From IMG/VR virus record IMGVR_UViG_3300032138_000002, positions 64,001-128,000 of that record: a stretch of DNA of 64,000 nucleotides; one strand, 5' to 3'. Positions 54,250-62,659 of this stretch are shown here, piece after piece. Below the pieces are notes generated by a model. The model saw only the letters and a program-made list of their open reading frames with translations, did not search any database and was not told the DNA's origin. Origin of the DNA: a virus (taxonomy: Duplodnaviria > Caudoviricetes). The stretch's first letter is position 1; each line of letters opens with the position of its first letter. A program made the position numbers and the translations under genes.

Positions 54250-54689
54250 CTTATTAACTCTTCCTTATAGTAAGCGGCTCTGTCGCTGCATATGCCCGCA
54301 CAGTGCCTTAATTCCTCAGTTATTTCAGGAGGGGGTTTTACAGCTATCGAATTTTTAACCAAGGTTTGACCTGGGTATGTCCAAATATAACCCCTGTTAG
54401 TTAAAGCAAAATTATCAGTCTGATGCCAAAAACAATGGACGTCCAACCTCAGCAATCTTTCAAGGGCGTTTAAATTTTTGGCGTGACACCAGAAGTTTTT
54501 ATTAAAAAGGAAGTTGGTTGGGATATATTGATCAGAACCATCATGTCCCAAATAAAAGCTCCCCTCTTTCCACCACACATCTATTTCTACTTCAAACCCC
54601 TTATAAACTGCGTCTAAAATATAGTTGGGAGTATTTTCAAAAGCAGGCTGTGGGCCTATGATGTTGCCTCTATGGGCTATTATTTTCAT
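54246..54689 (-). CDS. GDPD/PI-PLC-like phosphodiesterase-fold protein; start re-called to 54689
   Basis: MKIIAHRGN, ENT, VEIDVW, LGHD, GICSD; ATGA overlap with the upstream gene. Confidence 0.75.
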   Translation of the reverse strand: MKIIAHRGNIIGPQPAFENTPNYILDAVYKGFEVEIDVWWKEGSFYLGHDGSDQYIPTNFLFNKNFWCHAKNLNALERLLRLDVHCFWHQTDNFALTNRGYIWTYPGQTLVKNSIAVKPPPEITEELRHCAGICSDRAAYYKEELIR

Positions 54690-55429
54690 CCAATATTCCT
54701 GAGAATAAAATTCTCCATCATTATAACACATTCTGGGAGGGGTTGTTTAGCTGTGTTTATGGTTAAATCTGGGGTTTGGGGTTCTTCAAAGGGGTCTGAA
54801 ATGCCAGTAAAATTATAGATCTTATCGGGGTGACCATCAGGTAGGAGCGCCTTAGCATATAACCCCTTTATATCTCTTTTCTTTACCGTCTCTAAATCGC
54901 ATTTTATGTATATTGTTTTAACGCTAGAATCTTTTTTCTGGTTTTCTATTCTTATCTCTTCATAGGGGTTGATAGCAGCGATGATTGATATTATGCTGTT
55001 TCTGGCTAATATTTTGCTCACAAAACTTAAACGCCTAATATTGTTGTTTCTGTCTTCTTTGGAAAAACCCAAGTCTTTGCACAGGTTTTCGCGATACTCG
55101 TCGCCGTCAATTACCTCTACCAAATAACCTTTTTTTCTCAGTCTCTGCGCTGTGTGCTGCGCTAGTGTGCTCTTGCCGGCACCAGATAAGCCCGTCATAT
55201 GAAGTGAAATGCCTTTGGTTCGACCCCAACGAATGACAGCCCAAAATCGTTCATGATAAATATAGGCAAACAAAGTGACAATTTGGTGGAGCACACTAAT
55301 GCTGACAGACGTGGCTGCTGAACTGGTAATAAAATATGAACAACATAATAGGCTCAAAAAGCCTAACAGTCTCCACGACAAAGATTTAACTATACTGCGT
55401 CGTCGGGTATCAATCATCCAGATATCCAT
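54686..55429 (-). CDS. cysC: DUF2061 membrane domain fused to adenylyl-sulfate (APS) kinase
   Basis: RSIVKSLSWR...YHERFW (DUF2061 pattern); TGLSGAGKSTLA, DGDEYR, LGFSKEDR, RDIKGLY, FTGISDPFEEP. Confidence 0.88.
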   Translation of the reverse strand: MDIWMIDTRRRSIVKSLSWRLLGFLSLLCCSYFITSSAATSVSISVLHQIVTLFAYIYHERFWAVIRWGRTKGISLHMTGLSGAGKSTLAQHTAQRLRKKGYLVEVIDGDEYRENLCKDLGFSKEDRNNNIRRLSFVSKILARNSIISIIAAINPYEEIRIENQKKDSSVKTIYIKCDLETVKKRDIKGLYAKALLPDGHPDKIYNFTGISDPFEEPQTPDLTINTAKQPLPECVIMMENFILRNIG

Positions 55430-56237
55430 AGTGACGGAGCCATGGGCCGCACTCTGTCTCTATAAAAGCTATTTGTTCGTCGGTCAAAGTTTCTTTGTAT
55501 CCCCCCACTTTGCCGTTATTTGATGTAATGTGTTCTTTTAACATTAACGTGGCCGAATATCGGGGGTCACTCCAATCACCAGAAGTCAACAAATTGTCCG
55601 TATCATCTTTAATGCCTTCCGCTTTCATGATAATCGACTTAAGTACCTCTTCTTTCATGGTATCGATCTCGGGAAAAAAGTTTCTCATCAAAGTTTTGAG
55701 TGTTTCAAGGGGGTCAACCTTATAATCCTCATAACACCATTCATAGCGTTTAACATATTTGTTTATATCAGGAATTGCTTCGTTATCGACATATTGCTGG
55801 ACCTTGGAAAAATCCTTTTGCTTTGATGCGGCATACCACATCAGGTGTTCTTTCACTATGTTTTCGAACTCCTCTTGTGATAATTCTACGTTTCCATGGT
55901 GTTCCCTTCTTTTACGCAACGCCGAGGCCGCAGTATCGCGGATATCACGACGTACGGTAATTAAAAAATCACACACGATATCTCCCGTATGTTCCTTTGC
56001 TATGAGTATATCCACGGGAGCAGGGGGTTCTTTTGTGTGATATTCACAATAATCCTGACTGAGGGCTACGGCGACGTTAAGTTGGCAGGTTTCGCAGAAA
56101 ATTCGCATAAGATTGAGAAGCAGAGTGCTTCCAGATTGCGGCATTCCCCCTATACACACAATCGGTGGCCGTTTTTTTTGCCATGTCTTTTTCCGCATTC
56201 GTGTCCAGATGTTATCGTCTTTCCAGGACAAGTCCAT
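55410..56237 (-). CDS. PAPS-dependent sulfotransferase-family protein
   Basis: 5'-PSB-like GMPQSGSTLL, 3'-PB-like RDIRDTAAS, YED, GKVGGYKETLTDEQIAFIE; next to APS kinase. Confidence 0.75.
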   Translation of the reverse strand: MDLSWKDDNIWTRMRKKTWQKKRPPIVCIGGMPQSGSTLLLNLMRIFCETCQLNVAVALSQDYCEYHTKEPPAPVDILIAKEHTGDIVCDFLITVRRDIRDTAASALRKRREHHGNVELSQEEFENIVKEHLMWYAASKQKDFSKVQQYVDNEAIPDINKYVKRYEWCYEDYKVDPLETLKTLMRNFFPEIDTMKEEVLKSIIMKAEGIKDDTDNLLTSGDWSDPRYSATLMLKEHITSNNGKVGGYKETLTDEQIAFIETECGPWLRHYGYLDD

Positions 56238-56950
56238 TATTGGTTCTCCAAAAAATATTTGAGGTCTTCAGGAGTACCTAGGCCCCACATTTTGTTAACA
56301 TAAAATGGAATTAAAGTTTTTCCGTCTTCTAGCATTTCGTTATAAACCGGGGCAATATAATATTCCCCATTTACTCTCACGTTTTTTTCTATCATTTGGT
56401 GAGCATATTTAACGAACTCTGAGCCTCGTCGATACCAATATATACCACATGTGGCGATATTGGAAATAGGCCTTTTCTCAGCCACCTCTGTAACAAAACC
56501 GCGAGAATTTGTCTTTACAAAGGACCATTTTGGGTGTACGGCATTGAACGTGAAGACCATCGAATCTACATCAGTTAAGTTCTTCAAAGTTTTAAAATTC
56601 TCGGCCTCGTACTCAATAAATTGATCAGAATTGGCGATTAATAAGTCCTCGTCGTCGTTAATAAGATCTTGAGCTAATAGGGCAGTGCAAGCCGCTCCTT
56701 CAGTTAACTCTTTTACCTCCACATGAGAACAGCGGCCATTTGTTATACGTTCCAGAGTATCTAAGAGACCGGCATACTTTTTTACGTGATCGTGCCTTAC
56801 TAAAAATATATATTCACAATCAAAATCTAGATTTTCTACCACCGTTTGGATCATGGGTCTTCCACGAACATCAATCAATGGTTTGGGAAAAGTATATCCC
56901 TCTTTGGTGAATCTACTGCCTTCACCCGCCATGGGTATTAAAACTTTCAT
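56237..56950 (-). CDS. Sugar-phosphate nucleotidyltransferase
   Basis: LIPMAGEGSRF...PKPLI, TEGAACT, ANSDQ, VAEK, LGTPED. Confidence 0.88.
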   Translation of the reverse strand: MKVLIPMAGEGSRFTKEGYTFPKPLIDVRGRPMIQTVVENLDFDCEYIFLVRHDHVKKYAGLLDTLERITNGRCSHVEVKELTEGAACTALLAQDLINDDEDLLIANSDQFIEYEAENFKTLKNLTDVDSMVFTFNAVHPKWSFVKTNSRGFVTEVAEKRPISNIATCGIYWYRRGSEFVKYAHQMIEKNVRVNGEYYIAPVYNEMLEDGKTLIPFYVNKMWGLGTPEDLKYFLENQ

Positions 56951-57566
56951 CTATAAATCTTTTAACCCCCTTTTTAATTACTTCGGTGGCATTGGTGACT
57001 TTCATTACACTACACCCGGATGCACGTGCAGCTTTTTCCCCTTTGGGGGAATCTTCTATTATCATAGCATTTTTAGGGACACAATTAAAGTGTTTTAATA
57101 CCTGAATATAACCTTCGGGGTCTGGTTTTGCATTAATCACATCTTCATTAGTTAAAAAGTACTCAAGATGCTCTAAAATACCAGCTTCAGTCAATACAAG
57201 TGAGGCCGTTTCTCGAATACTATTAGTAAAACACGCAATTCGGGCGTTATTGGATTTAAGCCATTGTATTAATTCAACTTTTTCCGGTCTTTCTTCGGAT
57301 TGTGCTCTGATTATCTCTAGAGTGCGCTCTTGCTTAAAATCAAATATGTCTTGAACATTATCTTTTTCAATTTTATTGGCCTCCACCAGCATTTTTAATT
57401 TTATCTTAGTGGGGAGGCCGTTGTATATTTTATAATGTTCCTCTAGGGGAATCTCATAGTTACAAACATGTTTTAATGCAGCATTGAATGCTTCTAAATG
57501 CCATCCGCAAGCATCTACCAACACCCCGTCCATATCAAAAATAACTAGTTCTGGAAACCTAGACAT
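56922..57566 (-). CDS. HAD-family phosphatase (beta-PGM-like); start re-called to 57566
   Basis: FDMDGVLVD, FTNS, KPDPEGY, IEDS; GAGGT RBS. Confidence 0.88.
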   Translation of the reverse strand: MSRFPELVIFDMDGVLVDACGWHLEAFNAALKHVCNYEIPLEEHYKIYNGLPTKIKLKMLVEANKIEKDNVQDIFDFKQERTLEIIRAQSEERPEKVELIQWLKSNNARIACFTNSIRETASLVLTEAGILEHLEYFLTNEDVINAKPDPEGYIQVLKHFNCVPKNAMIIEDSPKGEKAARASGCSVMKVTNATEVIKKGVKRFIDESFNTHGG

Positions 57567-58281
57567 TTGTACCTCTAGCCGCTGGGTCAATATTGTATTC
57601 ATCCAGGAGACTTTTAAGTTTTTTAGGATAACACTGAAAATCCCATTTACCTTTTACGACCGCGGTGGCAAAATAAGGATAAACATGACTATCCCAGTGA
57701 AAGTCTCCTCGCATTTGTTCGCCTTCCATAAAAGTCATCGCGCACTTAAATGCATGTTTTGCACAAACAATATTACTGTTGGCTTCGAATTTCCATATAT
57801 TCTCACCGGGAGTTTCCTCATAGATACGCATTAAATTTTCTTTTTTACACAATGTGGGTTGAATTGCGAATTGTAAATCCGGAGGGCAATAAAAAACATT
57901 CTCGTGAAGCATGGTGGGAGTTAAGGTTTCATATGGTCTGTACGTTGCCCGTACAAATTTAATAAAATCAAGTTGTTGTTCTTTTATCAAGCTACAACAT
58001 TTCTCTATTATTTGATTATTCGGCTCCCCATATAAAAACATATCCTCATGGTGAAATACAATTATGTCTTCTTCGACTTGCTGAATACCTTGCAAAACGC
58101 GTTGTTGATAGGGCAGTGCATCGTCATACCGCAACAAAACCCAGTCGGAATTTAAATCCGGCGTGCTTTGGTCAGCAATTAGATATTTCTTTACTTCCGG
58201 CAAAAACTTGTCCATTTGAGCGAACATGGGTTTCCAGATATCTGAATAATCTGAATGGGAATAGAAAACGGCGGCGTACAC
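57559..58281 (-). CDS. Putative glycosyltransferase-like protein; GTG start re-called to 58281
   Basis: Sugar-cluster context; HHEDMFL acidic motif, QPTL.KK, WKFE, AVVKGKW; AGGA RBS before the GTG. Confidence 0.45.
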   Translation of the reverse strand: MYAAVFYSHSDYSDIWKPMFAQMDKFLPEVKKYLIADQSTPDLNSDWVLLRYDDALPYQQRVLQGIQQVEEDIIVFHHEDMFLYGEPNNQIIEKCCSLIKEQQLDFIKFVRATYRPYETLTPTMLHENVFYCPPDLQFAIQPTLCKKENLMRIYEETPGENIWKFEANSNIVCAKHAFKCAMTFMEGEQMRGDFHWDSHVYPYFATAVVKGKWDFQCYPKKLKSLLDEYNIDPAARGTNV

Positions 58282-58289
58282 TAGTATTC

Positions 58290-59090
58290 CTACAACAATG
58301 CCATGAAGTCTGCGTGGGCGGTGGCGCCACACTCATCCATTTGTTTAAAGAAATCAACGGATAAGCTTCGATTCACATCGTCGATAAAAGGCGAGAACTT
58401 ATCATGAGTTAATTCCTTTTTTTCGAACGTTAAAAGATGATCTATCTTTGTTTCTAGCACTTTGTCCCACACGCGTGTTCCGATTGTTGGGATTGTTCCC
58501 AGTTCACACACATCCCGTAGACCTTTCACCGTACGCATTGAGCCGGCAATAATTTCTGCGCAGTCTGATTTACGCTTTTGAGCAAAAGCTACGTGTGCGG
58601 CAGCGTCCACTCCCTGCTCTTCCATCCGGCCGGGAATCAAACTAACATAACGGACATTATAAGTGAAACATGATAAGGCAGTTGAACAGTCGGCGACGCC
58701 GGTGACGTTTGTTTCCATAAAATTATTCAATTGGTCTACAACCTCAAGCACTCCGTGAAATGGGGGTATTTTTAGGCCTAGGCGTGTGGTGCCGTCTGTA
58801 AACTGACATATATACTCGGCCCATTTAACAATGTCATGAGGACACATCTCCGAATTTGGCGCTTGTACATATACGACGCCTTTGTTGTCGCCTCGTATTT
58901 TGGTTACAAGCGCACATAACTTCGGGAGATGTTCCGTCCATTGTTCTAGGCGATCCATATTTACCTTTTTAAATGCATTTGGATTTGTGGTGATCCCGCG
59001 CACGTGAGTACTATCGACGGTATTTTTAAGGCGCCCCCAGACATTTTCGATATATTCTATATCGGCAGTATCAAAAAAGAAATCAAACAT
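58290..59090 (-). CDS. Divergent transaldolase / fructose-6-phosphate aldolase family enzyme
   Basis: FFDTAD, GITTNP, Schiff-base LKIP, NVT, YVS...GR, IAGSMR. Confidence 0.8.
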   Translation of the reverse strand: MFDFFFDTADIEYIENVWGRLKNTVDSTHVRGITTNPNAFKKVNMDRLEQWTEHLPKLCALVTKIRGDNKGVVYVQAPNSEMCPHDIVKWAEYICQFTDGTTRLGLKIPPFHGVLEVVDQLNNFMETNVTGVADCSTALSCFTYNVRYVSLIPGRMEEQGVDAAAHVAFAQKRKSDCAEIIAGSMRTVKGLRDVCELGTIPTIGTRVWDKVLETKIDHLLTFEKKELTHDKFSPFIDDVNRSLSVDFFKQMDECGATAHADFMALL

Positions 59091-59448
59091 TTTTTTCCTC
59101 CTCGGCTTTTAATAATGTTTTTTTAACAGTGTCCCAATCAGTGAATTTTATTCCCTTATCATCTATAAAATAATCTACATGGGGTTTTCCAAACAATAAC
59201 TCATCATAAGGGATGCAGTATTTGTCTAGCCAATCTAAAACAAGCTTCCCTTGATTTGCAATAATTCTTCCCACGTTGTTTTCACAAGTTCTCATGTTTC
59301 GAGCAGTAAAAATGACAATATAATATCCACGTTGTTTTAAAAATTCTAATGTTTCTACAGCGTTAGGCAAAGGTTTTACATCACGGTAACTCTGGTCTGC
59401 GGCTTTGGTCTCGCATATTGTCCCGTCTAAATCAACGCATATCTTCAT
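59083..59448 (-). CDS. Small HAD phosphatase (capsule biosynthesis phosphatase type)
   Basis: VDLDGTI, FTAR, YDELLFGKP, YFIDDK. Confidence 0.88.
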   Translation of the reverse strand: MKICVDLDGTICETKAADQSYRDVKPLPNAVETLEFLKQRGYYIVIFTARNMRTCENNVGRIIANQGKLVLDWLDKYCIPYDELLFGKPHVDYFIDDKGIKFTDWDTVKKTLLKAEEEKNV

Positions 59449-60403
59449 AATCTAACGCCTCGTTTAAAAGTTTGATACCAGTAGTATACATCACCGTTTG
59501 CCGGGGCAAGCTATCATAATGTCGCGAGCACATACCAATGTATATCAATCCTTGAATTAACTTAGCTCTATTATCTCTGAATCTGTCGAATTTATTAAAC
59601 ACTTTTTTAATTTTTTCTTTATTATCATTTGCAAAGGTAACCTGAAAGTGGTTTAAGTCTTTATTCTCTTCTAACTCAAATTCATCAAAAATAATATATT
59701 CATATCCCCCTTCGAAAGAATGAACAAGTTTAGCTATATCATAGAGTGGATCACCAAACACACCGTCCTCACCAAAATGCCCGCGAGGGTCTACGAATTT
59801 TAACAAATGGGTCTGAGTTTTTGCATTTACCCCACAAAGAATATTCGAAAAACAAAAATCTCCATGAATAACCGAAAGTTGACGCAAAGGCGTTAAATAA
59901 TGTCGAATAAGTTCCTGTAGCTGATTCCATAAACAGTGGAAGTTCGCATAGGAGCGTCCGTCGATAATAAGTTTTTGATGGGTGGCTATGACTGCAAATT
60001 TAGGGTTTTCTAGTAATTCTTTATAATAACGTTCCGTTTTGCCAATGTACATTGCTTCTGCGTACGCTGTGAAATCGTCGTTTTTATGGGTTGTTACAAA
60101 AGAATCTAAAGCGTCGTTAATACCCGATGCAACATTTTCCCAAAAGGCTTGATCGAAATCCTCGTATACCATATAATCACCCAGATTATTATAAGCGTAG
60201 TACTCTAATTCCATCGAATGCTCCCCATCTTCATGTGAAGATTTGCGAAATCTAGGGAAAAAGATAGAGTGCGGTGTCGTCTCTATATCTTTATAATAAT
60301 TTATTTCATCAAAGAGGCGTGTTTCGCGGCTTCGTTTCGTTATGGTTCCTAACGATGAGTCAATCGAAAACGAATTATAGGCTCTCGTTATATGCTGCTT
60401 CAT
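59432..60403 (-). CDS. Aminoglycoside-phosphotransferase-fold sugar kinase (capsular polysaccharide type); start re-called to 60403
   Basis: IHGDFCFSNIL, DPRG.FG, GDPLYDIAKL.HS; GAGGA RBS. Confidence 0.8.
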   Translation of the reverse strand: MKQHITRAYNSFSIDSSLGTITKRSRETRLFDEINYYKDIETTPHSIFFPRFRKSSHEDGEHSMELEYYAYNNLGDYMVYEDFDQAFWENVASGINDALDSFVTTHKNDDFTAYAEAMYIGKTERYYKELLENPKFAVIATHQKLIIDGRSYANFHCLWNQLQELIRHYLTPLRQLSVIHGDFCFSNILCGVNAKTQTHLLKFVDPRGHFGEDGVFGDPLYDIAKLVHSFEGGYEYIIFDEFELEENKDLNHFQVTFANDNKEKIKKVFNKFDRFRDNRAKLIQGLIYIGMCSRHYDSLPRQTVMYTTGIKLLNEALDYEDMR

Positions 60404-61775
60404 AGACTTCCTCGATGGACAAGATCGATAAGCCATTATTCACCGCAAATTTGTTAAGATCGCCGCCTTTTGTCATCGTCCCATCGTCATTCATAATTTC
60501 ACAAATAATAGCAGCCGGTTTAAGACCCGCTAGTTTCATTAATTCTACAGAGCCTTCCGTGTGCCCTCTGCGCTCCTTCAGGAGGCCGTCACGTGCCCTC
60601 AGGGGGAACAGGTGGCCTGGGCGTGTAAGGTCGTCAGGCTTTGACGTGGGGTCCAGCAATACTTGAAGAGTAACCAGCCGATCGTACACTGACATGCCCG
60701 TAGTTGTGCCGTGCTTTGGGGCACCATCAACCGATACGGTAAACGGAGTTTCGTTAGCATCCGTATTATTCTCAACCATGGGTGGAATTTCCAAACGCTT
60801 AAGATCGGCGTCCGTCATGGGCACACACATCAACCCCTTCGCTTTATTCATGGTAAAAACAAGGTTTTCGACGGATGCGCGTTCGGCAGCGATCACAATA
60901 TCCCCCTCATTTTCGCGATCATATTCATCCACCAAAATAATTGGTTTCCCTTGTCTAAGTTCTTCGAGGGCGTTTTGCATTTTTCTGCTTTTAATCATTT
61001 CATTTTCCTTTGTAGCTGATTTGGCAATAAAAATGTCTACTTTGCTAGACATTTTTTTAATTTCTAACCATGTTTCAAATTCGGCGAGGCTTTCTGGAGT
61101 GTCCATCGATCTCATTTCTAGAATATTGTAATCGAAGATATTCTTACCGGCTGCAATTGCTTCATTAAAAACTGGTGAAATATAAAATTCGTTATTAACA
61201 CGAATATTTTTGGTGATCATGGAATTGGCAAATTCTATAAAATCGGATCCGTGGCGCCAATAAAAGGCGCCCGCCAAGGCTGTTGTAGAAATAACTTCCT
61301 TTTCAGCTACTCGATTTACGCGGCCACCATCACCAACCTCGGCATAACTCCATGATTTATTTCCGCTCTTATCATTAAAAGTAAAAATCATTCCGTCGAT
61401 GTCTGGATTGTTGATTGTTGTAGTAAATGTTTCCGTTTCCCAGAGGAAATAGTTATCACAATTGACAATCATTAGCTCTTCGTCGTTGTCGATATGGCGC
61501 GCCGCTAACAATGCTGTACAAGCTTGGCCGTCGGTTATACCATCTGCTACCACAAGTCGGCAATCGGGGACAATTTGTTTCAGTGTTTGATCGATATGAT
61601 ATTTATCGATATGTTCTTTCTGTACAATAAAAATATATTGCCCCTCTATGTTTAAACTCTCCACAACGCGTTGTATCATTGGTTCGCCGGCGATGTCGAT
61701 TAGGGGCTTAGGTAAACTATACCCCACTTCTTTAAAACGCTTTCCGGCGCCTGCCATTGGTATTAATATATTCAC
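60375..61775 (-). CDS. ribB: Nucleotidyltransferase fused to 3,4-dihydroxy-2-butanone-4-phosphate synthase (RibB); GTG start re-called to 61775
   Basis: N-terminal LIPMAGAGKRF...PKPLI; C-terminal RENEGD, GLMCVP, FTVSVD, TTGMS..DR, RPGHLFPL, RRGHTEGS, ICEI. Confidence 0.9.
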   Translation of the reverse strand: MNILIPMAGAGKRFKEVGYSLPKPLIDIAGEPMIQRVVESLNIEGQYIFIVQKEHIDKYHIDQTLKQIVPDCRLVVADGITDGQACTALLAARHIDNDEELMIVNCDNYFLWETETFTTTINNPDIDGMIFTFNDKSGNKSWSYAEVGDGGRVNRVAEKEVISTTALAGAFYWRHGSDFIEFANSMITKNIRVNNEFYISPVFNEAIAAGKNIFDYNILEMRSMDTPESLAEFETWLEIKKMSSKVDIFIAKSATKENEMIKSRKMQNALEELRQGKPIILVDEYDRENEGDIVIAAERASVENLVFTMNKAKGLMCVPMTDADLKRLEIPPMVENNTDANETPFTVSVDGAPKHGTTTGMSVYDRLVTLQVLLDPTSKPDDLTRPGHLFPLRARDGLLKERRGHTEGSVELMKLAGLKPAAIICEIMNDDGTMTKGGDLNKFAVNNGLSILSIEEVYEAAYNESL

Positions 61776-61777
61776 TT

Positions 61778-62659
61778 TTATTCCCACTCCGTTTGAAGGG
61801 CTATAGCACTGTCCCATAACTCATTTTTTATTAGAAACCATTTCATCAGCAAAATACCATTGACAGCCAAATAATAAGGATACTTATGTAAATTTTTACT
61901 GCGTTCCTCCGGAGGTTTTGTTTTTTCGTTGCTCCGAAAATCATTCATTTTAGATTCGGGCCAGCCTGATGTCACTGTCTCCCTATATTCACTTCTCAAT
62001 TGCAAATAGTCTAACAACACTTTTTCATAAAGGCTGCAAAAAATATCCATGTTTTTGGAATTAGAATAGAACCACATATCCGCGGGCCCTTCATTGAAAA
62101 GATCCCAATCAGCTTGATATAAATAATTCATATCCAACGTCGGGTCAAAGTTGATACATTGACACGGAAAAGGATTTTGTTTTCCTGGGCCGCTCGTGGC
62201 GCGATTGATGCGACCTAAGTCGAAGCGTGCCTTAATAACACAGTCATATTTAAACCCTTGTTCTTTTTCATATTCTCGCTTAAGAACAAGCGACTGAGAA
62301 AGAGAATAATATTGACTTAACAACCTCTCTGGGCCCACGTACCCAGTACCAGAAGTCGACGTCATTGTCCAATTTCCCAAAAAATTATAGGGATCGATAT
62401 CTTCTCGACTTACCTCGTGTTCTTGAGCAATGGGTACAAAGTCAATTTGGGGCTCTATAATGTGTTTTCTAGGCTTATATAAATCAACTAGTTTCTCCTC
62501 TAGATGGGGCTCCCAATTGTGAAAGAACACATCAATTTCGCAATCCTCCGAGCCATGGCTAAGAATATGTTTCTTAATATATTCAAACCCATCCATGCCC
62601 CGGGAGGAACTATCTTTCAGGGAATCGAAATAACCCGATAAACAGAGAGCGATTTTCAT
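61778..62659 (-). CDS. Putative glycosyltransferase-like protein (MKIALCLSG type)
   Basis: KIALCLSG, DVFFHNW, SQYYS, YDCVIKARFD, ADMWFY; sugar-cluster context. Confidence 0.5.
   Translation of the reverse strand: MKIALCLSGYFDSLKDSSSRGMDGFEYIKKHILSHGSEDCEIDVFFHNWEPHLEEKLVDLYKPRKHIIEPQIDFVPIAQEHEVSREDIDPYNFLGNWTMTSTSGTGYVGPERLLSQYYSLSQSLVLKREYEKEQGFKYDCVIKARFDLGRINRATSGPGKQNPFPCQCINFDPTLDMNYLYQADWDLFNEGPADMWFYSNSKNMDIFCSLYEKVLLDYLQLRSEYRETVTSGWPESKMNDFRSNEKTKPPEERSKNLHKYPYYLAVNGILLMKWFLIKNELWDSAIALQTEWE

Follow-up and report, generated by a model that had tools for sequence, protein, structure and literature searches.

The 64,000-nucleotide stretch of viral DNA analysed here (the window; positions 64,001 to 128,000 of IMG/VR virus record IMGVR_UViG_3300032138_000002) encodes a member of the TAL_FSA superfamily with a TIM-barrel transaldolase fold, in which the two known proton donors of the superfamily, the glutamate of transaldolase (TAL) and the tyrosine of F6P aldolase (FSA), are both replaced. 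The protein belongs to a discrete clade and is encoded within a conserved cassette that points to an undescribed step in the making of an unusual activated sugar. The fold and the covalent chemistry of the protein are known; the novelty lies in the catalytic site and in the proposed pathway role. The fold, the residue mapping, the conservation and the gene linkage were established by structure prediction, profile alignment, a survey of 104 full-length sequences and a comparison of 48 related viral loci. The functional reading that is favoured here, at about an even chance, is that the protein is an active class I aldolase or transaldolase using Lys107, which would perform the carbon-skeleton step of a RibB-dependent NDP-sugar cassette with 3,4-dihydroxy-2-butanone 4-phosphate (DHBP) as acceptor; the substrates and the product are those that we infer.

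Gene and family assignment

The gene lies on the minus strand of the window, and the positions relevant to its chemistry are listed below.

58290..59090, minus strand, transaldolase-fold (TAL_FSA) gene, 266 aa, with a PF00923 match and an AlphaFold2 model
58863..58865, minus strand, codon of Gln76, which aligns with the catalytic Glu of TAL (E60 of Thermoplasma acidophilum TAL, TacTAL) and with FSA Gln59
58770..58772, minus strand, codon of Lys107, which is predicted to form the Schiff base and corresponds to TacTAL K86 and FSA K85
58635..58637, minus strand, codon of Ile152, which aligns with TAL Phe132 and FSA Tyr131
58293..58439, minus strand, C-terminal region (residues 218–266), comprising a linker and helices 238–254 and 256–265

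The open reading frame is intact, with an ATG start, a GAGGAGG sequence 7 nt upstream and a TAG stop. It is part of a long run of co-oriented genes and has an 8-nt overlap with the upstream HAD phosphatase gene. The motifs quoted in the preliminary description were all located in the translation, namely DTAD (D7), TTNP (residues 34–37), VYVQA (Q76), LKIP (K107) and YVSLIPGR (S150, I152 and R155). The protein scored 38.1 bits against the Pfam TAL_FSA model PF00923, above the gathering cut-off of 27, and 30.5 bits against the FSA/TalC equivalog model TIGR00875, below the cut-off of 245.95. A search of the PDB with the single sequence was barely significant. The 3' end of the gene has a 43-nt overlap with a 257-aa open reading frame (57559–58332, minus strand) that has no family match and has homologs in the five closest loci only, which places it outside the conserved core described below.

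Predicted fold and C-terminal tail

The structure was predicted with AlphaFold2 using the family alignment, which gave a pLDDT of 96 and a pTM of 0.92. Comparison of the model with solved structures gave a Foldseek probability of 1.00 and VIA-align Z scores of around 22.5 to TAL, FSA and sulfofructose transaldolase structures. The barrel (residues 1–217) superposed on FSA and on the T. maritima, B. subtilis, T. acidophilum and sulfofructose transaldolases with an rmsd of 1.9–2.4 Å over 191–196 residues (Z ~22), while the whole chain (residues 1–266) aligned over 236–243 residues with the classical TalB, human and Francisella transaldolases (Z 22.5–22.9).

The protein had been described as carrying a C-terminal extension of ~45 aa. 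The excess over FSA is indeed ~46 aa; however, VIA-align maps model residues 2–217 onto FSA 1–200, so that only ~29 aa of this excess are C-terminal and ~17 aa are internal insertions. The tail contains three near-invariant residues (F247, F248 and M251), and in the model it superposes on, and resembles, the C-terminal helices of the classical TalB-type enzymes. In classical transaldolases these helices fold back over their own barrel, while the corresponding helix of FSA is swapped to the neighbouring subunit. As the whole model aligns to TalB-type chains, the tail of the window protein is predicted to fold back on its own barrel.

Mapping of the active site

Active-site residues were assigned by aligning a family profile built from 32 members to solved structures, including TacTAL, with HMMER, and by hhalign comparison with E. 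coli FSA. In the alignment with TacTAL, D7 was paired with D6, N36 with N28, Q76 with E60, K107 with K86, T130 with T110, S150 with S130, I152 with F132 and R155 with R135, the segments GvvyvQ, yvsiiPGR and GSMRT falling opposite GPVSVE, YVSPFVGR and ASIRN, respectively. In the comparison with FSA, Q76 corresponded to Q59, K107 to K85, S150 to A129, I152 to Y131 and R155 to R134. The YVSLIPGR segment of the window protein aligns without gaps to both YVSPFVGR of TAL and YVAPYVNR of FSA, and Gln76 is positioned at the end of a predicted strand (residues 72–76), as Glu60 and Gln59 are at the end of strand 3. The hhalign alignment with FSA shifted the N-x-T motif by three residues, and the assignment of T130 is therefore taken from the HMMER alignment with TacTAL; hhalign against TalB gave a partial alignment with a probability below 1%. 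A MAFFT alignment with four canonical sequences put FSA Gln59 opposite Lys64, and was discarded for the HMMER and hhalign alignments because both of these agree with the predicted strand 72–76.

The residues retained by the window protein are Asp7, Thr34/35, Asn36, Lys107, Asn128, Thr130, Ser150, Arg155, Ser184 and Arg186, so that the Schiff-base lysine, the aspartate and the Arg/Ser/Arg phosphate site (R155, S184 and R186) are all present. The TAL glutamate that activates the catalytic water (TacTAL E60, TalB E96) is absent and replaced by Gln76, and the Phe of the TAL S-P-F-V-G-R motif (TacTAL F132, TalB F178) is replaced by Ile152. The Gln59-Thr109-Tyr131 triad of FSA is only partly present, with Gln and Thr kept and Tyr changed to Ile or Leu. 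From an alignment by eye the preliminary description had assigned Gln to the TAL Glu position, as in FSA, and Ile to the position of FSA Tyr and TAL Phe, and had concluded that both known proton donors were missing. The two profile methods agree on each of these assignments, proper alignment to TacTAL and E. coli FSA restored no catalytic Glu or Tyr, and the absence of both donors extends across the whole clade.

In FSA and TAL the proton transfer is mediated by a water molecule that is held by Gln/Glu, Thr and Tyr/Phe, and Tyr131 is the main proton shuttle of FSA (PMC13259622). The same paper, citing Stellmacher et al., states that swapping the water-site residues interconverts TAL and FSA activity (PMC13259622). 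In the window protein a non-ionisable Gln/Thr/Ile(Leu) combination occupies this site, where TAL has Glu/Thr/Phe and FSA has Gln/Thr/Tyr. With no ionisable member in the water site, proton transfers would have to proceed via Asp7 and Lys107, and perhaps via Tyr/His74 or Asp/Glu134. The donor pocket (Asp7, Thr34/35, Asn36 and Ser150) and the distal phosphate pocket (Arg155, Ser184 and Arg186) are canonical, and the protein should therefore bind a 2-ketose phosphate shaped like F6P. Ser150 is the TAL-type residue, and Ser at the equivalent FSA position (A129S) favours dihydroxyacetone (PMC3962226, PMC13259622).

Conservation and distribution of the clade

Approximately 281 clusters at 90% identity matched the aldolase, and a profile search of 1.84 billion representatives returned at least 115 clusters at 50% identity with E <1e-30. 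Conservation was examined over 104 full-length sequences, consisting of the window protein and 103 representatives of 50%-identity clusters. Position 76 was Gln in 102 of the 104, and position 152 was Ile in 87 and Leu in 17, with no sequence having Phe or Tyr. Asp7 and Gly131 were found in all 104 members, Thr34, Lys107, Asn128, Thr130, Ser150 and Arg155 in 103, and Asn36 and Arg186 in 102; Lys107, Asp7, Arg155, Ser184 and Arg186 were each kept in at least 95. The only near-invariant ionisable residues are Asp7, Lys107, Arg155 and Arg186, and none of the positions among the 104 members holds a fully invariant replacement acid/base. Position 74 is mostly Tyr (54) or His (36), with Phe in 9 and Trp in 4, and faces the same way as Gln76, being two residues earlier on the same strand. 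Position 134 is Asp in 87 members and Glu in 8. From these patterns positions 74 and 134 are candidate relay residues, neither of them universal.

The clade is well separated from the canonical enzymes. The weakest full-length member among the matches listed scored 119 bits against the family profile, compared with 48 bits for cyanophage S-WAM2 TalC, 5 bits for E. coli FSA and 1 bit for E. coli TalB, and the clade is therefore considered discrete. The solved structures closest to the profile were B. subtilis Tal (42 bits) and T. acidophilum TAL (37–39 bits), and short TalC-type transaldolases are the most likely ancestors of the clade. A metagenome representative (P0237), which diverges most among the full-length members, has Glu at position 76 and Leu at position 152, which fits descent from a Glu-bearing TalC-like ancestor. 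This, and the mere 5 bits that FSA obtains against the profile, suggest that Gln76 is convergent with FSA rather than inherited. A second metagenome representative (P0197) has Glu in place of the Schiff-base Lys together with further losses, and may be a degenerate copy.

Two strict peptide patterns, run against 185,579 cellular species genomes, found no clade member, and all 47 loci recovered from IMG/VR were viral contigs. The members known so far come from viral and metagenome sequences, and the term virus-only is provisional. No description of this Gln/Ile(Leu) aldolase clade was found in the literature searched.

The absence of both known acid/base residues could indicate an inactive remnant of a transaldolase with a structural or regulatory function, and in P0197 even the lysine has been lost. 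The conservation makes this most improbable, to the point of near-dismissal: the Lys, Asp, Asn, Thr, Ser and both Arg residues remain near-invariant among members that share only 27–47% identity with the window protein, which is not expected of a dead enzyme. The intact reading frame with its strong ribosome-binding site, and the fixed position of the gene in 48 loci, also argue against it.

The gene cassette

The aldolase gene is accompanied in the window by the following genes.

61778..62659, minus strand, 293-aa protein without a Pfam or NCBIfam match, from a family of unknown fold that is found mostly in viruses
60375..61817, minus strand, fusion of a sugar-1-phosphate nucleotidyltransferase to RibB (DHBP synthase), 480 aa, matching TIGR00506 ribB
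59432..60436, minus strand, 334-aa kinase of the APH fold, homologous to the kinase half of AfhE-type nucleotidyltransferase/kinases, with a tblastn match to phage HY126
59083..59448, minus strand, small HAD phosphatase, 121 aa, AfhF/EcbF-BcbF-like, scoring 86 bits against the capsule phosphatase model TIGR01689 (cut-off 162)
56237..56950, minus strand, a further nucleotidyltransferase encoded on its own, 237 aa, paralogous to the N-terminal domain of the RibB fusion

The RibB domain scored 218 bits against TIGR00506, above the ribB equivalog-domain cut-off of 177, and the nucleotidyltransferase domains gave weak matches to RmlA, GlmU and MurU models. The kinase matched the nucleotidyltransferase/kinase gene of phage HY126, and many other E. 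coli T-even-like phages, in tblastn over residues 169–328 (29% identity, E 1e-8). The APH-fold kinase, small HAD phosphatase and sugar-1-phosphate nucleotidyltransferase are encoded together, as in the AfhE/AfhF-type module.

Linkage was assessed by tblastn of all window proteins against 48 related viral loci. The genes adjoining the aldolase were the kinase (48/48), the HAD phosphatase (47/48), RibB (47/48) and a nucleotidyltransferase, in the fixed order RibB-kinase-(nucleotidyltransferase)-HAD-aldolase. The nucleotidyltransferase can be fused to RibB or have its own gene, which then lies between those of the kinase and the phosphatase; RibB and the nucleotidyltransferase are separate in many loci, and many related loci have one nucleotidyltransferase only. 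Clustering of all open reading frames from 49 loci upheld this core, and placed an SDR epimerase/dehydratase in 36 of these and homologs of the 293-aa protein in 43, often two per locus. All matches to the 293-aa protein in the Atlas were hypothetical viral clusters, in one of which 11% of the members carry DUF7796; the protein may be a transferase that uses the cassette product. An arabinose-5-phosphate isomerase was found neither among the conserved cassette clusters nor in Pfam scans of the neighbours.

Several loci carry additional genes. In some (L015:6727-7536 and L015:5730-6734) a second APH/EcKL-like kinase and an extra SDR epimerase/dehydratase lie between RibB and the core kinase, so that RibB can be several kb from the remaining cassette. 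A 409-aa protein resembling the RuBisCO large chain (PF00016, 114 bits) is encoded just downstream of the cassette in 8 of the 48 loci (at 11855-13084 in L027, and also in L026, L028-L030, L033, L035 and L036), and is absent from the window. The RuBisCO-like family contains enolases and isomerases. In the window, a few genes downstream of the cassette (54686-56237, minus strand), two overlapping genes encode an APS kinase, which begins with a DUF2061 membrane segment, and a protein with weak likeness to sulfotransferases; this pair suggests that the glycan or another product is sulfated.

Relationship to phage TalC

The only cultured carrier found was Synechococcus phage S-SKS1, which can be grown on Synechococcus WH7803 and whose aldolase is 44% identical to that of the window. 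S-SKS1 carries both a canonical Glu/Phe TalC with the motifs VSAEVV (Glu) and YISPFVGR (Phe), which scored 171 bits against PF00923, and an aldolase of the Gln/Ile type, which scored 47 bits. The canonical gene is at L053:1492-2157 (NC_020851.1, ~24.6-25.2 kb), ~11 kb from the Gln/Ile aldolase, and the two form a natural side-by-side pair for comparison. As S-SKS1 has both, the two enzymes are not redundant. The suggestion that the aldolase has a role apart from that of cyanophage TalC was strengthened by this pair and by the cassette linkage in 47–48 of 48 loci; a chemistry or a substrate different from those of TAL and FSA would be consistent with the sequence features. The window belongs to a 159-kb viral record, estimated to be 90% complete, in which the Gln/Ile aldolase is the single TAL-family gene. 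No psbA/Photo_RC was found in this 159-kb genome and no tRNAs in the window. A cyanophage label for the window phage is unsupported in view of the absence of psbA, its relative S-SKS1 being one.

The canonical donor and phosphate pockets could also belong to an ordinary transaldolase or F6P aldolase that acts on pentose-phosphate intermediates, either supplying ribulose 5-phosphate for RibB or doing the usual job of TalC, with Gln and Ile as tolerated variants. The best canonical matches of the family are TalC-type enzymes (B. subtilis Tal at 42 bits and S-WAM2 TalC at 48 bits), and the window genome has no other TAL gene. Such an assignment is nevertheless unlikely. The protein reaches 30 of the 246 bits that TIGR00875 requires, the replacement of both proton-shuttle residues extends to virtually every clade member, and S-SKS1 retains a canonical TalC too. 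An ordinary transaldolase could not alone yield ribulose 5-phosphate, and no transketolase was found travelling with the cassette in the clustering of open reading frames from the related loci. In addition DHBP, with four carbons, cannot cyclise, and would leave the kinase, phosphatase and nucleotidyltransferase with no sugar to activate.

Proposed activity and pathway

In the favoured reading, RibB would convert ribulose 5-phosphate to DHBP, and the aldolase would most likely join a C3 (or C2) enamine unit to this product. The enzyme is expected to carry a dihydroxyacetone-type enamine, the bound species approximating a ketohexose 6-phosphate Schiff base on Lys107. The hydrophobic residue at position 152 may shield the enamine from protonation, like the Phe of TAL, and favour transfer over release. 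In DHBP the ketone carbonyl lies two carbons away from the carbon that bears the phosphate, the same spacing as for the aldehyde of glyceraldehyde 3-phosphate, with a methyl group replacing the aldehyde hydrogen. If DHBP accepted a C3 unit, the product would be a 4-C-methyl ketohexose 6-phosphate able to form a furanose, and thus a cyclisable and probably C-methyl-branched sugar phosphate. A furanose-forming product would be the kind of substrate expected for an AfhE/AfhF-like trio, and its conversion to an NDP-sugar would fall to the AfhE-like kinase, the AfhF-like phosphatase and the nucleotidyltransferase.

This scheme, although unproven, would assign a role to every cassette gene. Gene adjacency suggests DHBP as the substrate and does not prove it, and the literature searched contained nothing relevant that links DHBP synthase, transaldolase and nucleotide sugars. 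The more specific proposal is that the enamine adds to the DHBP ketone to give a tertiary-alcohol, C-methyl-branched sugar phosphate, and that the Gln/Thr/Ile(Leu) site is adapted to the extra methyl group and to another proton relay. In this detail the scheme is tentative and rather doubtful. A ketone-acceptor aldol addition would be unusual for the TAL/FSA family, and is thermodynamically less favourable.

Two further readings of the RibB linkage were considered. The aldolase may make a conventional higher ketose, as LmbR does, while the DHBP from RibB is activated separately as an NDP-linked four-carbon unit. Two such branches would account for the two nucleotidyltransferases of the window, one fused to RibB and one separate, and LmbR provides a precedent for a transaldolase working with a kinase, a phosphatase and a nucleotidyltransferase. 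The arrangement appears quite improbable, as many loci have only one nucleotidyltransferase, a conventional transaldolase reaction leaves the clade-wide loss of Glu and Phe unexplained, and clustering of the open reading frames revealed no conserved isomerase comparable to LmbN in the cassette.

Alternatively, the carbon-carbon bond machinery may have been lost with the Glu or Tyr, leaving an enzyme that performs Schiff-base chemistry other than aldol chemistry on the RibB product, such as C3 epimerisation, enolisation or beta-elimination of phosphate. The residues lost are those that serve the C4-OH and carbinolamine proton transfers in TAL and FSA, the linkage to RibB is tight, and some related loci encode a RuBisCO-like protein. 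Against this, the distal phosphate pocket (R155, S184 and R186) is kept, and by chain-length reasoning a four-carbon substrate bound to Lys107 is too short to reach it. The residues that bind the hydroxyls of dihydroxyacetone (Ser150, Asp7 and Asn36) are kept as well, and the kinase, phosphatase and nucleotidyltransferase trio needs a cyclic sugar. Chemistry of this type is decidedly improbable.

Significance

In the textbook view of TAL and FSA, the choice between transfer and lyase chemistry depends on a single acid/base residue, either Glu or Tyr. The clade described here has neither of them, although it occurs in nature, is conserved and is abundant, with 115 or more clusters at 50% identity. 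Study of it could reveal a third catalytic solution on the TAL/FSA scaffold, which would be of interest to enzymologists and to those engineering FSA or TalB. If the proposed addition to a ketone is true, it would provide a SAM-independent route to branched sugars. The partnership of RibB with the activation trio bears on how phages may build a possibly branched or deoxy NDP-sugar from ribulose 5-phosphate, and is approachable with five recombinant proteins.

Comparison with known systems

The short TalC-type transaldolases (B. subtilis 3R8R, T. acidophilum 3S0C, T. maritima 1VPX and cyanophage TalC) have the TIM-barrel core in common with the window protein (rmsd ~2.0–2.4 Å over 191–196 residues), and share with it the Schiff-base Lys, the Asp, the TTNP and N-x-T motifs, the Ser and the Arg/Ser/Arg phosphate site. 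The clade differs in having S-[ILFVM]-[IL]-P-G-R in place of S-P-F-V-G-R and N-x-T-G in place of N-x-T-L, as well as ~17 aa of insertions and ~29 aa of extra C-terminus with F247, F248 and M251. E. coli FSA (1L6W) also has the same fold (Z 22.3, rmsd 2.0 Å over 193 residues), with Gln59 equivalent to Gln76 and the same water-site Thr, while the clade has no equivalent of Tyr131 and has Ser150 where FSA has Ala129.

A water site that combines Gln and Thr with a hydrophobic residue, and so lacks any ionisable group, also occurs in two engineered enzymes, FSA Y131F (4RXF) and TalB E96Q (4RZ5), both of which were among the fold matches of the model. These were made as laboratory probes of the acid/base residue, whereas the clade is natural and conserved and carries further changes around the site. 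FSA Y131F and TalB E96Q are reportedly poor catalysts, and the natural enzyme might accordingly be slow or do something else; nothing was found on E60Q/F132Y or E96Q variants in the literature searched. The whole clade model, C-terminal helices included, aligns with the classical long transaldolases (TalB 1ONR and human TAL 1F05), although sequence likeness to these is negligible and TalB has Glu96 and Phe178.

At the level of the pathway, lincomycin octose synthesis includes a transaldolase, LmbR, that makes octulose 8-phosphate. The likeness to the cassette is in pathway logic alone (transaldolase to sugar phosphate, then kinase, phosphatase and nucleotidyltransferase to NDP-sugar), and the LmbR pathway, unlike the cassette, is without RibB. 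The phage UDP-arabinofuranose pathway, which combines an arabinose-5-phosphate isomerase with the AfhE nucleotidyltransferase/kinase and the AfhF HAD phosphatase, has a homologous or analogous kinase, phosphatase and nucleotidyltransferase trio, and like the proposed cassette route it starts from ribulose 5-phosphate. In phage HY126, AfhE and AfhF are reported to convert arabinofuranose 5-phosphate via the 1,5-bisphosphate and the 1-phosphate to UDP-arabinofuranose (PMC13326640). By analogy the cassette looks like an AfhE/AfhF-like activation module in which RibB and the aldolase would stand in for the isomerase, so that the sugar activated would have a different carbon skeleton.
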